From the IMG/VR virus record IMGVR_UViG_2721755662_000004: a stretch of 64,000 nucleotides of DNA; one strand, given 5' to 3'. Below, piece after piece: positions 1 to 9,528 of this stretch. This DNA comes from a virus. Taxonomy: Duplodnaviria > Heunggongvirae > Uroviricota > Caudoviricetes. Every line of letters begins with the position of its first letter. The stretch's first letter is position 1. The notes beneath the pieces were generated by a model. That model was not told the origin of the DNA. It did no database searches and was given only the letters and a program-made list of their open reading frames with translations. Both the position numbers and the translations under genes were made by a program.

Positions 1-190
1 GGCAGGCTTCTTCGAAAGTGACATCTGGCATATCCCCCAGTCTGTCTACTCGCCAGAGTTCTGCTTTTCGCTTGTCGTGCAACTCCTGAGCTTGCCGCTT
101 GTCCTTTGTGCCAAGAGACTCCTTAATTCGCTTCCCGCCCGGGAGCGAGTACGAGGCGTACCATATTTCACCTCTGCGGAAGAGTGACAT
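1..190 (-). CDS. int: Tyrosine integrase, N-terminal 63 codons only (gene continues left of window)
   Basis: Minus-strand ATG at 190 gives [48 protein letters not shown], typical P22-type integrase N-terminus; lies downstream of xis. Confidence 0.65.
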
Positions 191-417
191 TTTCTTTCCT
201 CTGTTATGCCATCACCCGCGCTCACCTGGACAGTATGCAGCGGTGAATGAAGTGCTGCAATGCAGGCTTGCCGGGTTGTGAGATAAGGTGATCTTTTACC
301 GGAAGAATTTTTTCGGGTTGCCTGTAGTCGGCCCGTTCGTATCCAGTTAACAGCTGTTGGCCTTGATATCTTGAGAAACTTACAGGCCTCTTTGAGGGTG
401 ATACTGTGTGAATCCAT
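46..417 (-). CDS. xis: Excisionase-like HTH protein; 3' end overlaps int start and true end uncertain
   Basis: From internal ATG at 417: [33 protein letters not shown], excisionase/AlpA-type HTH; immediately upstream of int. Confidence 0.5.
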
Positions 418-451
418 ATTTTCGCCATTAAAAACCGCCCGAAGGCGGTTG

Positions 452-703
452 TCAGTTGATTGATATGCGGCGCATTTTTCGAAGGCTGGCAATATGCTTT
501 TCCTTCTCAATTTCTGCTTTAATCATGTGTAGTTCGTTGTGATCGATTCGCTCAAATTCTGCATTAAATGCGCTAATTGAAGCGGCTCTGGTTCTCCCAT
601 CCAGCCTGCGGAAGATTACCTGCGTCAGAGTGATTTTGCAGACTTCAACCGGATAGTTGTTGGCATCGACGAAAGACTGCCCGCGCTGGATTAGAACGAA
701 CAC
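452..703 (-). CDS. Hypothetical small protein (PL operon)
   Basis: 83-aa ORF between exo and xis, same strand as operon. Confidence 0.35.
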   Translation of the reverse strand: MFVLIQRGQSFVDANNYPVEVCKITLTQVIFRRLDGRTRAASISAFNAEFERIDHNELHMIKAEIEKEKHIASLRKMRRISIN

Positions 704-754
704 CGGTAGTATTCCTTAATTGTCATATCATTTGCACCTCGTTGCTACTGGCTA

Positions 755-1432
755 TCACCATTGCTCCCCAAATACAAAACCAATTTCAGCCAGTGCCTCG
801 TCCATTTTTTCGATGAACTCCGGCACCATCTCGTCAAAACTCGCCATGTACTTTTCATTCCGCTCAATCACGACATAATGCAGGCCTTCACGCTTCATGC
901 GCGGGTCATAGTTGGCAAAGTACCAGGCATCTTTTCGCGTCACCCACATGCTGTACTGCACCTGGGCCATGTAAGCCGATTTTATTGCCTCGAAACCACC
1001 GAGCCGGAATTTCATGAAATCCCGGGAGGTAAACGGGCATTTCAGTTCAAGGCCGTTGCCGTCACTGCATAAACCATCGGGAGAGCAAGCGGTGCGCATA
1101 CTTTCGTCGCGATAGATGATCGGGGATTCAGTAACATTCACGCCGGAAGTGAACTCAAAGAGGGCTCTGGCGTCGTTCTCGTACTGTTTTCCCCAGGCCA
1201 GCGCTTTAGCGTTAACTTCCGGAGCCACACCGGTGCAAACCTCAGCCAGCAGGGTGTGGAAGTAGGACATTTTCATGTCAGGCCATTTCTTTCCTGAGCG
1301 GGGTTTTGCTATCACGTTGTGAACTTCTGAAGCGGTGATGACGCCGAGCCGTAATTTGTGCCACGCATCATCCCCCTGTTCGACAGCTCTCACGTCGATC
1401 CCTGTACGTTGCAGGATAATGTCCGGTGTCAT
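755..1432 (-). CDS. exo: Lambda-type exonuclease (Red alpha)
   Basis: 225 aa, near-identical over its length to lambda Exo as recalled ([43 protein letters not shown]...). Confidence 0.95.
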
Positions 1433-2214
1433 GCTGCTACCTTCTGCTCTGTGACTTTCTGTTTCAGGAATCCAAGAACCTTCACAGCTTCAGCCTGTGT
1501 TAGTTCTGAAGATGTGTAAATGTTGCGGCGAAAAATCTGGGAACAGAGCGGCAACAGGTCGTCATCCCACGTTTTTTCCATGGAAGTAAGAAGGGCGTTA
1601 ATTTCCGACATGGTTTCTTCGTTAACCGGGGTGATGTCGCGTTCCGGCTGACGTTCTGTAGTATATGCAGTATTTTCGACAATACGCTCGGCTTCATCCT
1701 TGTCATAGATGCCAGCAAATCCGAAGGCCAGGCGAGCACACTGAATCATGGCTTTGTGCCGTAACATCCGTTTGGGATGCGACTGCCACGGTCCGGTGAT
1801 TTCTCTGCCTTCGCGGGTTTTGAATGGTGCGCGGCGACATTCATCCATCCACTCGGTAACGCAGATCGGGTGATTGCGATCTTTGCGGTAAATCCGGCAT
1901 GTACAGGACTCATTGTCCTGCTCAAAGTCCATGCCATCAAACTGCTGGTTTTCATTGATAATGCGGGACCAGCCATCAACGCCAACCACCGGAACGATGC
2001 CGTTCTGCTTGTCAGGGAAGGCGTAAATTTCTTTCGTCCAGGGATTAAGGCCGTACTGGTTGGCGACGATCAACAATGCGATAAATTGCGCATCGCTGGC
2101 ATCACCTTTAAATGCCGTCTGGCGAAGAGTGGTGATTAGTTCCTGTGGGTCGACAGAATCCATGCCGACACGTTCAGCCAGCTTCCCTGCCAGCGTTGCG
2201 AGTGCTGTACTCAT
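1429..2214 (-). CDS. bet: Recombination protein Bet (Red beta, single-strand annealing)
   Basis: 261 aa, lambda Bet-like ([67 protein letters not shown]); overlaps exo start. Confidence 0.95.
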
Positions 2215-2219
2215 CCGTT

Positions 2220-2516
2220 TTATACCTCTGAATCAATATTAATTTGGTGACGGGCGATGGTTTCAGCCATGTAGCGGATGTGTTCTGCCATGCGTTCCTG
2301 AAAATCGACATCGTCATCAAATGCACGGGAAATAGCTTTTTTGCTGGCCCCGTGACGTTGCAGATTATCGATGCATAGCGATTCAAACAGGTGTTGGGGC
2401 AGACCTTTTTCCAGGTCGTCTGCCAGCTCAGCTTCAGTTTCTTCACGGGCAATTTGCTGGTAGTGTCGTGCCCATGACTGCTCTTCAATGCGATCGGGGA
2501 TAAGCCAGGCATTCAT
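2220..2516 (-). CDS. gam: Gam, RecBCD inhibitor
   Basis: 98 aa; matches lambda Gam C-terminal core ([44 protein letters not shown]...DIDSEV). Confidence 0.9.
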
Positions 2517-4585
2517 GATTTATCACCTTCGAAATTTTCAAGCCTGTTGGCAATCATGATGGCGATATCAGGGATTGCTGGCGCTGTGGCTATACATGCG
2601 GGGTTGGCGCACAAACCATAGACGGCGGCAATCACGAGCTGTCTTTTCCAGTCGAGAGTTACTGGCTCAGAATTGGCGTCATCGCCGGACGTATCACTGC
2701 CTGGCTCGTTCTGAACAACGGTTTCGCCCTCCTGAGCGGCATCAACAGAGTTTTCCTGAATGATCTTCTCCTCAGTTTGTGCTGAGTCTTCTCCATCAGC
2801 GGCGTCATTTTCTCCAAAAGTTTCAGCGTAAGTTTCATCTCCCATTACTGGACCACAGTCAGGGCAATGGCCGCCACCGTTCTGACTGCATGTGGTGCAA
2901 ACCTTTTCCACTTCCTGTTGCATTACTGGCCCTGGCTGTTGCTCTTCTGGCCCGTTTTGTTGCGTATCCGGGCTGTTTTGTCCCGCTTCTGGGGCAATTT
3001 GTTCCACTTTGGGCTGATTCTGGTCCTCAGTGTCGCGAGTCTGGATCCCCTTCACCCACTTCGGATCAGCAGGGTTACTGATGCCTTCAACGAATTCTCC
3101 ACGCGAGGCAGCCAGTAATTTGTCGGCATCGACTGGATTTTTTGGGGGGATGTTTTCCCTGGCTTTATTGAGTTCCTCCCTCAGTTCCTGGTATTTCGTT
3201 TCTACAGATGAGACATTTTCCAGTGATTGCGTGTCCTCATTATGTTTAACTGGAATTTCTTCCACTGATTCAGGCGCTGCCTGTTCATTAGCCATTGTGT
3301 CCGATGTTTGTTGCTTTTCTTCATCGCCATGTTTTCCTTCTGCTGTTCCGCGCTGCGGCATCGGTGCTGATGAGCGACCGCAGGCAATTTCCACGATTTC
3401 CGGATCCGGGTTAGCGTGATCGGTTTCGGTCAACACTTTGTTGAGATATTCAGTCACGCGTGCCGGGATGGCCTCAATGCCGATTGGTGCTTCTTTCACG
3501 GAAGCCACCACAATGGCGCGGGAATAATCCAGCCCACCGGGCATGGCGATAAATTTGTCGCGAAAAACAGAAAAGGGCGGCTTATTCTCTGACACGATTT
3601 CTTCAACGCGTTTTGCGTGTGCTGGGTGCAGGTTATAAATATCCACATCCATTGAACGGGCCAGAACGCCGGTGGCTACATCTCGTGCGAGTGATGTCTT
3701 ATCATGTTTGAATCCTTCACCACGATCGGTAATATTTCCGCCGCCAGCGTTAGCACCGGAAGGCGTACGGGTAATGCCTGAAACATAATTTCCGTTCTGC
3801 CATTCTTTTGTCAGCAGGCCCTGATCAAGGTAGTCAGTTTTCATCCAGGTGGAAATGAACTTGTCGAATTCAGCCGGGCTGATGCGATGATTTGCAGAGT
3901 GGGGGAATGCTTTCCCTACAGATTCAGCCAGGCGACTAAGGTGATAGTTCGTCAGTTTATCCAGTTCATGATGCGCGGCGCGCACAGCAGTAAGCAGGCT
4001 CTGAAGGTAACTGTCCTCTGTGTCCATCTCCATACGGATCACGTTATTGCGTTGTTCTGGTGTGGCATGATGCCGGTATTTTCCATCTTCATCTTTGCTG
4101 AATAAGAAGAGGTGAAGGAAGCGATGAGTAAGGCTCAGAGTGGCGACGGGAATTTCACACTCAGAACAGTCATCGTCGCTGTCCGGGGATTCGCTTTTCT
4201 CCACATCATCCGGAATAGTTCCGTCCAGGTTATCGTTGTCATCGCCAGCAGTTGTGGCATCTTCACCGTTGATGTTGTCATCGAAGGGGATAGCCATCAT
4301 GGTGATGCCATCGTTACCGCCTTTTTCATAGCGGTTGCAGAATTCAGTATCAAACACGCCTTCCGGTGGAAGGTCATTCACGACGGGGAAATTTACGCGA
4401 ACGGGTTTTTTGAAATCATCCTCGTCGTAGCCTGCATCGTCCATGGCTGCAATGCAGCGGGAAACTGCGACAGAAAGTTTTCTGGCCTCGGTCCAGAAAA
4501 AACCGCCTTTGATGCCAAGGCGTTTTCTGACTTTATCGTTTTTTGCTTCGCAGTGTAGTGCAAAAGTCTGTTTATCAGCGCTCAT
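2513..4585 (-). CDS. Large acidic hypothetical protein with C-x2-C-x7-C-x2-C motif, in kil/cIII position
   Basis: 690-aa ORF translationally coupled to gam; long Asp/Glu-rich tracts; [16 protein letters not shown] motif; hydrophobic C-terminal tail; no ATPase or nuclease motif seen. Confidence 0.7.
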
Positions 4586-6805: not shown

Positions 6806-7111
6806 TCAATCGTAATAAGCCGGAATTGATTTTCCGCGTTGTTTCTGGCGGCCTGAGCAAGTCACACCCATTTCACTGCGTGGTTTGCGGTAGTAAATAC
6901 GGTTCTGTTTACTCTCGACTTCTTCTGCCTTCTTGCAGCGAAGGCTTCCGAGTGATACTGCTTTGTCTGCTCCGACGCAACCAGAGATCTTTAGCGCAAT
7001 CTTCCGTGTCAGTCTTTCACTACTGCGCCGCTCTGCAATAAGTTCTTCCCTGCGAGCTTTATAGCGGCTTTTTGCCGTACCTTTGGATTCTTTCCAGATT
7101 ATGGTTACCAT
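6806..7111 (-). CDS. N: Antitermination protein N (phage 21 type)
   Basis: From ATG at 7111 with GGAG SD: MVTIIWKESKGTAKSRYKARREELIAERR..., C-terminus GVTCSGRQKQRGKSIP resembles lambda N C-terminus GITCSGRQKIKGKSIP. Confidence 0.85.
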   Translation of the reverse strand: MVTIIWKESKGTAKSRYKARREELIAERRSSERLTRKIALKISGCVGADKAVSLGSLRCKKAEEVESKQNRIYYRKPRSEMGVTCSGRQKQRGKSIPAYYD

Positions 7112-7221
7112 GATGGTCTCCTTTAAGTGGCTTTGGTGTATGACGCGTCGAGGTGTTTTTCTTCTCGATCGCGGCCTTGCAACTGAAATTCGCGTCATCC
7201 CCAAAACCACTTAGATTTTGG

Positions 7222-7262
7222 TCTCAACGGTTAGGTTGAGAGTCCATCAATGTTAAAGAGCC
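7222..7262 (-). promoter_or_regulatory. nutL: boxA (GGCTCTTTAACA) followed by boxB hairpin (TCTCAACCTAACCGTTGAGA) on the leftward transcript
   Basis: boxA consensus-like element then 7-bp stem hairpin about 110-150 nt upstream of N. Confidence 0.55.
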
Positions 7263-7304
7263 GGCCAATCTGTTCCGTTTGGCTTCCAGCGTCCTGCTGT
7301 TGAA

Positions 7305-7350
7305 TTGAAGATAACCTAAGTTATCTGGTTGTGCAATAACTATATTTATC
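7305..7350 (-). promoter_or_regulatory. pL-like promoter (TTGCAC-17-TATCTT) with embedded operator ATAACCTAAGTTAT
   Basis: Sigma70-like -35/-10 on minus strand with 14-bp inverted repeat in spacer; same half-sites as OR sites. Confidence 0.45.
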
Positions 7351-7444
7351 ATTTTATGAAAAACGTTATAAATGACTGATAACAAAAATATTTTATTTTT
7401 TGTGGTATCCGCGTGATATTTTCAAGGGGGAAAGGCTGATTGTT

Positions 7445-7666
7445 ATGGGTGATTGCATGTTAATCGAAGGGGAATTTGGTGTGTTGCACCAGCGGGTAGT
7501 CGAAATTCTAGGGGTGTCGTTGCTTGAGGTTATTGCTACTGGGGAAGCTATTTCAGCAGATGCTATTGCGGGAATGATCCGAGTGCTTCACCATGATGAA
7601 TTGGATGATCTCGCTGTGAAGTTAGCTATAGATGTGTTACTTCAGGATATGCGACTGTGTAATTAA
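7445..7666 (+). CDS. Hypothetical acidic 73-aa protein between N and cI, opposite strand
   Basis: ATG at 7445 preceded by AAGGGGGA; MGDCMLIEGEFGVLHQRVVEILG...; convergent with cI. Confidence 0.4.
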   Translation: MGDCMLIEGEFGVLHQRVVEILGVSLLEVIATGEAISADAIAGMIRVLHHDELDDLAVKLAIDVLLQDMRLCN

Positions 7667-7668
7667 GT

Positions 7669-7700
7669 AAATAAAACCCGGCACTGGAGCCGGGGGGATT
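7669..7700 (-). terminator. Intrinsic terminator downstream of cI (minus strand)
   Basis: CCCGGC-loop-GCCGGG hairpin followed by TTTTATTT when read on minus strand. Confidence 0.5.
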
Positions 7701-7819
7701 TAGAAATGGCATTTTATGAATTGGCTACTTGGCGAATGGTTTACCATCGGTGGTATTGAGCACAATAAAAGGCCGTTCTTCGTGAGTGTTCTTATAGCAA
7801 AAGTTCAGTTGGAGTCTGA

Positions 7820-8527
7820 TTACCAGCTATGTGATGACCAGAACACTCGCCCTATGATTCTTACGTTTTTGTAGAATTCTTCTCTGTTCATTACTTCATC
7901 AGGATACTCTTCGCGGTTTATCGATCTGATAATTACCGATGTTGGCGTGGCTATGAGCGTTTTTACCCTTAACAAATCAGCTTGGCAAATTGCATATGTT
8001 TTACCATCCCTGATGCTCGTATCTTGCGTGTTTACCCCCACCACATCACCATCATGGAGTGTTGGCTCCATGCTTTGCCCAACAACCCTGACCAACTTTG
8101 CCGCTTTTTCTGGAACTCCCATTTTTTTCAGGTAATAGCGCCTAAAAACTAGAGAGAATTCTGCGGACTCCTCCAATGCACAACTTCCTCCGCCAGCTGA
8201 AAGTGAAATATTTAGAAGGGGGAGCGCAACAAATTCTTCATTATCATTTTGATGATCATCCCAGGCGATAGCTTTTAAAGATGATTCCCGAGCATTAGAT
8301 GGCTCTTCTGCGCTCTGTGGTCTCATTGACCCTATACCAGAGCTTAGCCATTCAGGGCGAACTCTTAACGCGTTGGCTAATTCGACCATTTTACGTGATC
8401 CGGTTGTTTTACCAGATGACATCTTTTGTATGGCTGGTTGTGATACCCCCACCATGTCTGCAAGTTGTGCTTGTGACAACCCGGCTGAACTCATGGCGGC
8501 ATTTAGTCTTTCTGCGAATGTTTTCAT
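7820..8527 (-). CDS. cI: CI-type repressor (XRE HTH plus S24 LexA-like peptidase domain)
   Basis: 235 aa; N-terminal HTH (LSQAQLADMVGVSQPAIQKM), C-terminal VVGQSMEPTLHDGDVV Ser protease motif; divergent from cro. Confidence 0.9.
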   Translation of the reverse strand: MKTFAERLNAAMSSAGLSQAQLADMVGVSQPAIQKMSSGKTTGSRKMVELANALRVRPEWLSSGIGSMRPQSAEEPSNARESSLKAIAWDDHQNDNEEFVALPLLNISLSAGGGSCALEESAEFSLVFRRYYLKKMGVPEKAAKLVRVVGQSMEPTLHDGDVVGVNTQDTSIRDGKTYAICQADLLRVKTLIATPTSVIIRSINREEYPDEVMNREEFYKNVRIIGRVFWSSHSW

Positions 8528-8534
8528 ACCTGTA

Positions 8535-8605
8535 ATCTATAACCACGGTTATCAAAAGTAAAACAACAATTGTTATTGCCCTGGTGTATAACTCATGTTA
8601 TTTTT
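8535..8605. promoter_or_regulatory. OR region: three operator-like inverted repeats (ATAACCACGGTTAT, ACAACAATTGTTAT, ATAACTCATGTTAT) with divergent promoters
   Basis: Three 14-bp sites with ATAAC/GTTAT half-sites spaced 24-25 bp centre to centre between cI and cro. Confidence 0.55.
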
Positions 8606-8637: not shown

Positions 8638-8862
8638 ATGAATTTAGTGATTCAGCGAGCCTTGAATATTGTTGGCAGTCAAAAACGACTTGCAGCTGAT
8701 TGCGGCGTATCACAGCCCGCTGTTCATAAATGGTTGCGAGGCGGAAAAGTTTCTCCTGAAAAAGTTTTCGCTATCGTTAATGCCACCAATGGTCAGGTTA
8801 AGGCTTACGAAATTCGCCCGGACTTACCGCACCTGTTTCCTCATCCGAACCAGGCTGAATAA
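8638..8862 (+). CDS. cro: Cro-like HTH repressor (YdaS/Cro family)
   Basis: ATG at 8638 after GAGG SD; MNLVIQRALNIVGSQKRLAADCGVSQPAVHKWLRGGKVSPE...; divergent from cI. Confidence 0.75.
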   Translation: MNLVIQRALNIVGSQKRLAADCGVSQPAVHKWLRGGKVSPEKVFAIVNATNGQVKAYEIRPDLPHLFPHPNQAE

Positions 8863-8978: not shown

Positions 8979-9275
8979 ATGTCACAAACAAGTTACAGCA
9001 AACTGTCACAGCGCGATATCGATCGCGCTGAAACGGATTTACTTATCAACCTGTCAGCTCTGACGCAAAGGGGACTGGCGAAGATGATTGGCTGCCATGA
9101 ATCGAAGGTCAGTCGTACCGACTGGCGATACATCGCGGCGATTTTATGCGCGTTCCAGATGGCATCTGATATCAGTCCGATCAGCCGGGCTTTCCAGCAT
9201 GCCATTAACGTTCATGCAAATAAAAAACGTCCGGTTGGGGCCGGACGTTCTGAGCAAATCCTGATGAACATCTGA
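8979..9275 (+). CDS. cII: CII-like transcriptional activator
   Basis: 98 aa; C-terminus ANKKRPVGAGRSEQILMNI resembles lambda CII TNKKRPAATERSEQIQMEF. Confidence 0.8.
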   Translation: MSQTSYSKLSQRDIDRAETDLLINLSALTQRGLAKMIGCHESKVSRTDWRYIAAILCAFQMASDISPISRAFQHAINVHANKKRPVGAGRSEQILMNI

Positions 9276-9345
9276 TATTCAGGCAGGGCATGGAGCAATA
9301 CACGGGAATAATTCTGCCACATCTGGAAGAATTTCGCCAGCAACA

Positions 9346-9495
9346 ACACCAACCGCAGCAGCCTGAAGCCGATTGGGTTAACCCGGAGATACCGGGACCG
9401 TCTGTGAAGATGTGCAGTCACACCAATGTGCAGTCACACCAACCGCAGCAGCCTGAAGCCGATTGGGTTAACCCGGGAGATACCGGGACCGTCTG
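9346..9495. repeat. Two direct copies of a roughly 59-bp repeat (CCAACCGCAGCAGCCTGAAGCCGATTGGGTTAACCCGG...GGGACCGTCTG); putative origin iterons
   Basis: Copies at about 9346-9404 and 9436-9495; third diverged copy inside replication gene. Confidence 0.6.
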
Positions 9496-9528
9496 CGGTA
9501 TGGAGTAAATCTTGTATGCGAGGGGACT

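Follow-up and report, generated by a model that had tools for sequence, protein, structure and literature searches.

What does the short interval between the cI repressor gene and the leftward promoter pL of a lambdoid prophage encode, and is the small open reading frame (ORF) found there a gene? The window analyzed here is a 64,000-nucleotide stretch of a Caudoviricetes virus (IMG/VR record IMGVR_UViG_2721755662_000004). The ORF in question is an open frame on its plus strand that runs from an ATG at 7445 to a TAA at 7664–7666; a mechanical ORF call from a TTG at 7400 gives 88 amino acids (aa). The original prediction, made from the sequence alone, described a plus-strand ORF in the N–cI interval, convergent with cI. 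The frame, the strand and the flanking genes N and cI, both on the minus strand, were confirmed. It is a real gene: purifying selection acts on it, its position is fixed and a conserved promoter-like element precedes it. As to its role, we give about even chances to its being a moron-like accessory gene that encodes a connector-type, protein-binding factor.

The length of the ORF is by itself not beyond chance: 8 kilobases of the window contain 94 ORFs of 30 aa or more. Its product matches phrog_3946, a PHROGs family of unknown function, over the full length (E = 3.2e-30, 104.8 bits; residues 6–70 of the 73-aa version to positions 2–67 of the 67-position profile). A tblastn search found the protein in 54 phage records, none of them a record of lambda, phage 21 or P22. 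Identity was 97% in PA28, 06-3462 and Stx1a-converting phages, 46–49% in the Salmonella P22-like phages epsilon34, g341c, ST104, SPN9CC and MG40, and 32–36% in Klebsiella phages. A profile search yielded 625 homologue clusters (90% identity), all from Enterobacteriaceae, the genera being Salmonella, Klebsiella, Citrobacter, Enterobacter, Escherichia, Yokenella, Jejubacter and Scandinavium. An exhaustive HMMER search over 1.84 billion representatives gave only 64 matches, 37 of them at ≤1e-10, and a profile scan of genome contigs gave at least four loci, from Enterobacter, Scandinavium, Kosakonia and Pluralibacter. By these searches the family is narrow but real. The DNA segment of the ORF is present in 50 of 5426 complete E. 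coli genomes, as a single chromosomal copy in each, and no fewer than 1000 E. coli and Shigella contigs carry the exact 69-aa protein, always under the name "hypothetical protein". The ORF is thus not new, since databases already list it under that name and among the PHROGs of unknown function; its homologue is unannotated in the epsilon34 genome paper.

Frame conservation had been named beforehand as the point on which the proposal of a gene could fail. The frame is kept under strong purifying selection: across 41 distinct coding sequences, the ratio of nonsynonymous to synonymous substitution rates (dN/dS, Nei–Gojobori) had a median of 0.10 (quartiles 0.055–0.145) and was below 1 in all 515 informative pairs. 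Judged by sequence conservation and purifying selection, the question of whether the ORF is a genuine gene is settled. Decay was seen in a few loci: the g341c-like locus L065 has an in-frame stop (W46*), L032 has a frameshift by which the product grows to 90 aa, and L075 has lost three codons.

The coding sequence and its possible ribosome-binding sites are as follows.
7457–7666, plus strand: coding sequence of a 69-aa acidic protein predicted to form three helices (PGAP, phrog_3946, homologues, dN/dS, AlphaFold2); the alternative start at 7445 gives 73 aa.
7426–7435, plus strand: purine run GGGGGAAAGG, the Shine–Dalgarno sequence first proposed for the ATG at 7445 (read from the sequence).
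7447–7453, plus strand: GGGTGAT, a candidate Shine–Dalgarno sequence for the ATG at 7457 (read from the sequence).

The open frame stood as predicted, and the start codon did not: translation more likely begins at 7457 than at 7445. The RefSeq/PGAP entry WP_024166114.1 starts at the ATG at 7457 (69 aa), the phrog_3946 alignment begins at residue 6 of the 73-aa version, and the 66–68-aa homologues all align to the 7457 start. The 73-aa version is annotated in one GenBank record. The purine-rich run is present; its role as a Shine–Dalgarno sequence is doubtful because it overlaps the predicted transcript start near 7429. The homologues carry GAGG or GGAG 6–8 nucleotides (nt) 5′ of the start codon. 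The product is acidic, as had been stated, with an isoelectric point of 4.4 (69 aa) or 4.3 (73 aa) and 12–13 aspartate plus glutamate residues against 4 lysine plus arginine residues. The GC content of the ORF is 0.44 versus 0.45 for cI, so there is no compositional contrast with the neighbours.

The window holds a lambdoid prophage early region, which reads from left to right N, nutL, the ORF, cI, cro, cII and O-/P-like replication genes.
6806–7111, minus strand: N-type antiterminator (phrog_271, E = 7.6e-35; weak Pfam N_peptide match; PA28 annotation); its start codon is uncertain, and a longer form is annotated in other records.
7222–7262, minus strand: nutL, with boxA GGCTCTTTAACA and the boxB hairpin (93% identity to the annotated nutL of phage 21, HK629 and mEp235).
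7306–7369, minus strand: oL/pL region, with operator-like sites (ATAAC-N4-GTTAT) at 7311–7324, 7336–7349 and 7356–7369.
7820–8527, minus strand: cI-type repressor with HTH_3 and Peptidase_S24 domains (Pfam and PHROG matches).
8640–8862: cro.
8979–9275: cII.

In a pattern search, the 14-mer ATAAC-N4-GTTAT was found at 7311, 7336 and 7356 with 0, 1 and 2 mismatches, respectively, and three times between cI and cro, at 8539, 8563 and 8588 (8539–8601). By pattern and place, the two sets of three are oL and oR. The promoter pL is most plausibly formed by a predicted −35 element, TTGCAC (7334–7329), and a predicted −10 element, TATCTT (7311–7306), on the minus strand. The ORF lies between pL/oL and the end of cI and is therefore in the position of lambda rexAB.

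We compared 88 loci from annotated phages, 80 IMG/VR contigs and the window, many of them near-duplicates. A family member is present on the plus strand in 88 of 88. An N-like gene lies on the minus strand 247–580 base pairs (bp) upstream in 68 of the 85 loci with enough flank; the loci without an N match are mostly Klebsiella-type phages, whose N analogue is outside the reference set. Downstream, a minus-strand cI-like repressor gene is found in 73 of the 76 loci with enough flank, at a distance of 67–2126 bp. The minus-strand genes between the ORF and cI vary from phage to phage. This cargo includes BstA (E = 1.7e-124 in MG40), a KilA-N/BstA-like protein, P63C-domain proteins, ParA-like ATPases, a PD-Lambda-2 component, a PDC-M24B-like protein, toxin–antitoxin-like pairs and, in epsilon34, genes 44 and 45, a cargo pair of unknown genes (PMC2629481). 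The slot is empty in the window, where 153 bp separate the ORF stop from the cI stop. The interval between cI and N has been described as a mosaic hotspot (PMC8585504). BstA, PD-Lambda-2 and the other cargo of related loci agree with this literature and bear out the view of the cI–pL interval as a hotspot for prophage defence genes. The ORF had also been taken as the content of this variable slot, and here the picture changes: it is a conserved fixture of the pL-side border, kept with the slot empty or full.

Several of the compared loci carry cargo or family members of separate interest. A conserved pair of uncharacterised genes lies 3′ of cI in 13 loci (L048, 5320–6091; L059, 5320–6193; and 11 more), among them epsilon34 genes 44 and 45. 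The first product (approximately 110–140 aa) has a glycine-rich segment, a coiled coil and a C-terminal transmembrane helix, and the second measures approximately 157–162 aa; Pfam and PADLOC gave no match for either. The pair is a candidate defence or exclusion system. The slot downstream of cI also holds cargo of two other sorts (L079, 5457–6409; L056, 5693–6285): in some loci, a small partner accompanies a PD-Lambda-2_B-like protein (E = 5.6e-50), and in others there is a pair that, judged from a reading of the sequences, resembles HicA/HicB-type toxin–antitoxin genes. A divergent branch of the ORF family (68–71 aa, MDNEKGFFEQAHPHIAQVIG...) lies outside the immunity region at L078 4989–5195 and L085 4980–5195. 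It is flanked by tail-fibre assembly and secreted nuclease/phospholipase D-like genes on one side and by two DinI-like genes on the other, and it lacks the conserved promoter block described next.

Two elements upstream of the ORF define its predicted promoter.
7392–7401, plus strand: T-rich element TTTATTTTTT, the −35 area of the predicted promoter (conserved motif GA(A)TTTATTTTT).
7414–7422, plus strand: extended −10 element TGaTATTTT, with a predicted transcript start near 7429.

In phages whose operators, N genes and repressors are unrelated, an alignment of the 100 nt 5′ of the start codon showed a conserved block. Heteroimmune loci of Salmonella, Klebsiella and E. coli share the motif GA(A)TTTATTTTT, which stands at a fixed distance 5′ of the −10 element, and the TGn-extended −10 follows it by approximately 15–18 nt. 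The equivalents of TGaTATTTT are TGcCATACT in Salmonella types, TGtTATGCT in Klebsiella types and TGcGATACT. The extended −10, retained in approximately 42 of 49 distinct upstream sequences, stands 28–34 nt 5′ of the start codon, with a GAGG-type Shine–Dalgarno sequence after it. In the window, the promoter-like element is approximately 45 bp past the last operator-like site and outside 7311–7369. The predicted transcript start is approximately 130 bp from that predicted for pL, with the two promoters divergent, and approximately 67 bp past the outermost operator-like center. From this arrangement, we infer an autonomous promoter for the ORF that would be free of direct occlusion by cI. The earlier suggestion that the ORF may be expressed in the lysogen independently of immunity control is made plausible by a predicted promoter that is outside the operators and conserved across heteroimmune phages; expression in the lysogen is itself speculative.

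A cI-activated promoter like pRM, mirrored at oL, was considered and rejected. The operator centers would be at approximately −67 and −87, versus −42 for the lambda type, and the promoter block is independent of operator type. Two possible sources of expression evidence were also discarded. The BTP1 small RNA STnc6030 is antisense to the tailspike region and unrelated to the ORF, and the BTP1 transcriptome study (PMC7067206) is inapplicable because BTP1 is without the gene. Literature searches found no transcriptome that covers a phage with the ORF.

On the minus strand at 7371–7401, TATCAGTCATTTA fits the core consensus of integration host factor (IHF), WATCAR-N4-TTR, with an A/T tract before it. 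It lies approximately 78 bp 5′ of the predicted pL start and recalls the stimulatory IHF site of lambda pL. The T-rich element assigned to the ORF promoter is this same A/T tract, which may serve both. The IHF-like core is not conserved in the other loci.

The ORF is closely followed by a hairpin.
7677–7694, minus strand, with a T-run at 7676–7667: predicted intrinsic terminator of the cI transcript, an analogue of lambda t_imm (terminator scan).

The 6-bp GC stem begins 10 nt past the ORF stop. The hairpin is followed by TTTTATTTAC on the minus strand and by GGGGATTTAG on the plus strand, and it folds with approximately −13 to −15 kcal/mol on either strand (−13.4 for the terminator; z approximately −3.3). 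The T-run TTTTATTT is on the minus strand, and the terminator scan calls that strand only. The hairpin would therefore terminate the cI transcript and stop transcription of the ORF only weakly, and the proposal that it acts as the cI terminator is upheld at the level of prediction. The stem CCCGGC..GCCGGG, with an A-run before it, is conserved 10–13 nt after the stop (3 nt in L050) in 18 of 40 distinct downstream contexts. An Rfam 15 scan of 6900–8000 identified no RNA family, the only match being a chance-level one to potC (E = 0.73) inside cI.

The protein could be given a probable kinship. AlphaFold2, run with a 20-sequence alignment, predicted three helices (residues 2–28, 34–44 and 48–62). 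The best model had a predicted local distance difference test (pLDDT) score of 79.8 and a predicted template modelling (pTM) score of 0.68; the other four models reached a pLDDT of only 55–64. With the better model, a Foldseek search of the Protein Data Bank (PDB) ranked E. coli YmgB/AriR (2oxl) first (probability 0.98, TM-scores 0.65/0.72). When the family profile was aligned with YcgZ, YmgA and AriR using hhalign, the same segment was matched each time: h-G-x-A-V-x-x-L...(S/T)-R-x-S in helices 1–2, in a register that agrees with the structure match. Against the YcgZ orthologue alignment, hhalign gave P = 1.5e-4 and a score of 26.5, compared with a mean of 9.6 (standard deviation 1.8, maximum 17.4) for 200 column-shuffled controls and 10.4 for the reversed control. 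At the profile level, the YcgZ signal is weak but specific. Like YcgZ, YmgA and YmgB(AriR) (PF10798, 2OXL), the ORF protein would be a 60–90-aa protein with a helical core of approximately 60 residues and a three-helix fold; the helix 1–2 motif is shared, and both groups are restricted to Enterobacteriaceae. The chromosomal ycgZ–ymgAB operon, which adjoins prophage e14, has been proposed to be a phage-borne acquisition (PMC3509220).

Several observations weigh against this kinship and against the wider reading built on it. The hhalign probability for YcgZ is only 51%. PF10798, which scores YcgZ at 24.9 bits and AriR at 90.3 bits, matched neither the window protein nor any of 25 diverse family members, even at E = 10. 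Divergence across the superfamily is very high, such that the YcgZ profile reaches the YmgB structure only at E = 0.35 and YmgA matches no Pfam model. The SpoT-binding residue Arg74 of YmgB is apparently not conserved, as it aligns with an invariant valine in the ORF family, which speaks weakly against a route through SpoT. The ORF protein is also far more acidic than YcgZ/YmgB. Its gene is found between N/pL and cI within a prophage immunity region, outside the context bluR–bluF–ycgZ–ymgAB; unlike the BluR/BluF-controlled ycgZ–ymgABC operon, it is a single gene with its own predicted promoter. That promoter was not called by a generic two-hexamer promoter scan. On balance, we infer the fold and the link to the YcgZ/YmgB superfamily, and put true homology at roughly two in three. 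The function, first given as unknown, is thereby narrowed, with moderate support, to that of a probable distant relative of YcgZ/YmgB(AriR), and the target is still speculative. The ORF product is probably a new, divergent, phage-borne relative of known small regulators, and its membership is putative.

Other searches did not point elsewhere. Neither the window protein nor the diverse homologues scanned with it (two in the case of PADLOC) gave a significant match in Pfam, NCBIfam or PADLOC, and sequence searches of the PDB with family profiles gave chance-level matches only (Syo1, E = 0.06; USP28, E = 0.7). DUF2767 (PF10965), which has no known function itself, has the same profile length (67), and a distant family member, P0161, is collinear with it (residues 6–53 to profile positions 5–52). 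One UniRef cluster of the ORF family is named DUF2767. P0161 scored only 14.7 bits versus a cut-off of 20.7, and the window protein and 24 of the 25 tested members gave no match. Literature searches on DUF2767, PF10965 and phrog_3946 returned nothing. The genes ydaF and ydaG of Rac were considered as possible counterparts of the ORF; both lie on the strand of racR.

In our proposal, the ORF is an accessory gene of the moron type, self-contained and arranged back-to-back with pL on the left border of the immunity region. The extended −10 sigma-70 promoter TGaTATTTT (7414–7422), outside the cI operators, would drive a short mRNA. This mRNA would encode a very acidic, cytoplasmic, three-helix protein of 69 aa (or 73 aa from 7445), and the ORF would end 10 nt before the terminator of the convergent transcript of cI and any cargo. 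The protein would most likely be a distant connector of the YcgZ/YmgA/YmgB(AriR) type, with no enzymatic activity, that binds and modulates a conserved host regulator. The proteins of the YcgZ/YmgB group are small and cytoplasmic and exert their effects through binding to regulators; by analogy, the Rcs phosphorelay (RcsC/RcsD) and SpoT are the precedents for such a target. YmgB, together with YcgZ and YmgA, activates the Rcs phosphorelay in a manner that is independent of RcsF and blocked by RcsD T411A (PMC11709261); Rcs activation and/or SpoT binding by YmgB/AriR is documented in PMC10704370 and PMC11709261. A link between YcgZ and ompF control has also been reported (PMC5491885). The lysogen would be expected to differ in its envelope or its stress physiology, namely in capsule, porins, acid resistance or ppGpp. 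The target and the phenotype are speculative.

The distribution of the gene argues for a conserved host target. The same protein accompanies heteroimmune phages, the gene is kept with or without cargo, and its divergent branch sits in a different accessory region, between tail-fibre/nuclease genes and DinI-like genes. All three features point to a target in the host and away from a phage-specific one, which speaks for a lysogenic-conversion or accessory role. These observations also bear on whether the protein instead tunes the phage's own lysis–lysogeny switch by acting on cI, N, CII/CIII, FtsH or RNA polymerase, which we consider fairly unlikely. The place of the gene beside oL/pL, within the immunity region in nearly all loci, would suit such a role. 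Many anti-repressors and modulators are likewise small and acidic, and lambdoid development could be influenced through the ppGpp route of YmgB. However, the same protein occurs with unrelated cI, N and operator types, and direct binding to an immunity-specific partner is therefore unlikely. In addition, the divergent branch is far from any switch, and the well-studied lambdoid switches of lambda, P22, 434 and 21 function without the ORF.

A part in defence or counter-defence is suggested by the surroundings of the ORF, which adjoins BstA, PD-Lambda-2 and other cargo; rexAB and bstA are examples of lysogen-expressed genes of this interval with a role in defence (PMC8585504). Its protein, with its strong negative charge, could then be an acidic DNA mimic with anti-restriction or anti-defence activity, a superinfection exclusion factor or the self-immunity partner of the cargo. 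We regard this as fairly improbable. The ORF is present with an empty slot in the window and in 50 E. coli genomes, and, with many different cargos as its neighbours, it is no cognate partner. PADLOC had no match for the ORF protein, although it matched the neighbouring cargo of related loci to BstA, PD-Lambda-2_B and PDC-M24B. The DNA mimics Ocr and ArdA are larger than a 69-aa three-helix protein.

The block could also act at the DNA or RNA level, by insulating pL/N from read-through out of the strongly transcribed operon of cI and its cargo or by providing a homology block for module exchange, with the peptide incidental. The hairpin does face the cI transcripts right beside the ORF stop, and the block forms an island of conservation amid mosaic flanks. 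Nevertheless, between subfamilies the protein is conserved even though its synonymous sites are saturated (dN/dS approximately 0.1), which is unexpected for a pure DNA or RNA element, and the hairpin is missing in approximately half of the distinct contexts in which the ORF is kept. We therefore hold this explanation to be very unlikely, although a role as insulator or recombination linker, above all through the terminator, may be an additional function of the block. Finally, a chance ORF or annotation artefact, suggested by the many ORFs of similar size that arise by chance in the window and by the lack of annotation in several GenBank records, is practically negligible in view of the PHROG membership, the hundreds of homologues in several genera, the conserved length of 66–69 aa and the strong purifying selection.

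Seen as an accessory gene, the ORF has two sets of relatives in lambdoid phages. It shares the lysogen-expressed cI–pL interval with lambda rexAB, BTP1 bstA and other cargo downstream of cI (PMC8585504; PMC7067206). Such cargo is co-directional with cI, is transcribed from the cI promoter and varies between phages; the ORF, in contrast, is on the opposite strand, has its own predicted promoter, is conserved across phages and flanks the cargo. It resembles the lambdoid morons (lambda bor and lom; the P22-like "ant moron") in being small, with a promoter-like element in front and a hairpin after it, in being missing from some close relatives and dispensable for lytic growth, and in having a divergent branch in the classic moron region near the tail-fibre genes. 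The ORF differs from morons in its unusually fixed position at the pL border, in a hairpin that serves mainly the opposite strand and in a GC content like that of its neighbours. The fixed position at the hotspot border, the conserved extended −10 promoter and the probable YcgZ/YmgB link appear to be unreported in the literature searched.

The gene is widespread in E. coli and Shigella, with relatives in prophages of Salmonella, Klebsiella, Citrobacter and Enterobacter, including Stx-converting phages, and homologues are present in PA28-type, epsilon34, ST104 and MG40 phages. If it does encode an Rcs/SpoT connector, it would be a widespread lysogenic-conversion factor for capsule, biofilm, acid resistance or persistence of pathogens, and it would supply an origin for the ycgZ–ymgAB genes. 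In its boldest form, this proposal holds that a constitutive YcgZ/YmgB homologue fixed beside pL plugs into host signalling (Rcs and/or SpoT–ppGpp) and reprograms the capsule, porin, acid-resistance or stringent physiology of the lysogen, that chromosomal ycgZ–ymgAB descended from such phage genes and that the ORF-plus-terminator block can be used as an anchor for hotspot mining. Taken as a whole, this is a tentative and unlikely combination. Whatever the function, the fixed position of the ORF marks the pL-side boundary of the hotspot, which makes the hotspot easy to find and mine; among the 88 loci, this has already given BstA, PD-Lambda-2, PDC-M24B-like proteins and several uncharacterised cargo families.

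Some features of the surrounding region were also noted. The cI gene is apparently leaderless, as in lambda: a TAGATT −10 element stands 5 nt before its ATG (8527–8552, minus strand), and the centers of oR3 and oR2 are at approximately −19 and −42 from the A of this ATG, in agreement with the geometry of lambda pRM. A 52-aa ORF on the plus strand at 7716–7874 overlaps the 3′ end of cI and is probably spurious. An exact 11-nt direct repeat, CATTTTATGAA, occurs at 7350–7360 and 7710–7720, once on each side of the ORF module, and could be due to chance or be the trace of a module insertion. Further to the right, an 85–90-bp block (CAACCGCAGCAGCCTGAAGCCGATTGGGTTAACCCGGGAGATACCGGGACCGTCTG...) is present three times in the window (9339–9498 and 10178–10270). 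Two copies are in tandem, approximately 90 bp apart, just 5′ of the O-like replication gene, and the third is inside this gene, where it encodes QPQQPEAD...PGPS. The blocks could be origin iterons or a duplicated coding segment.
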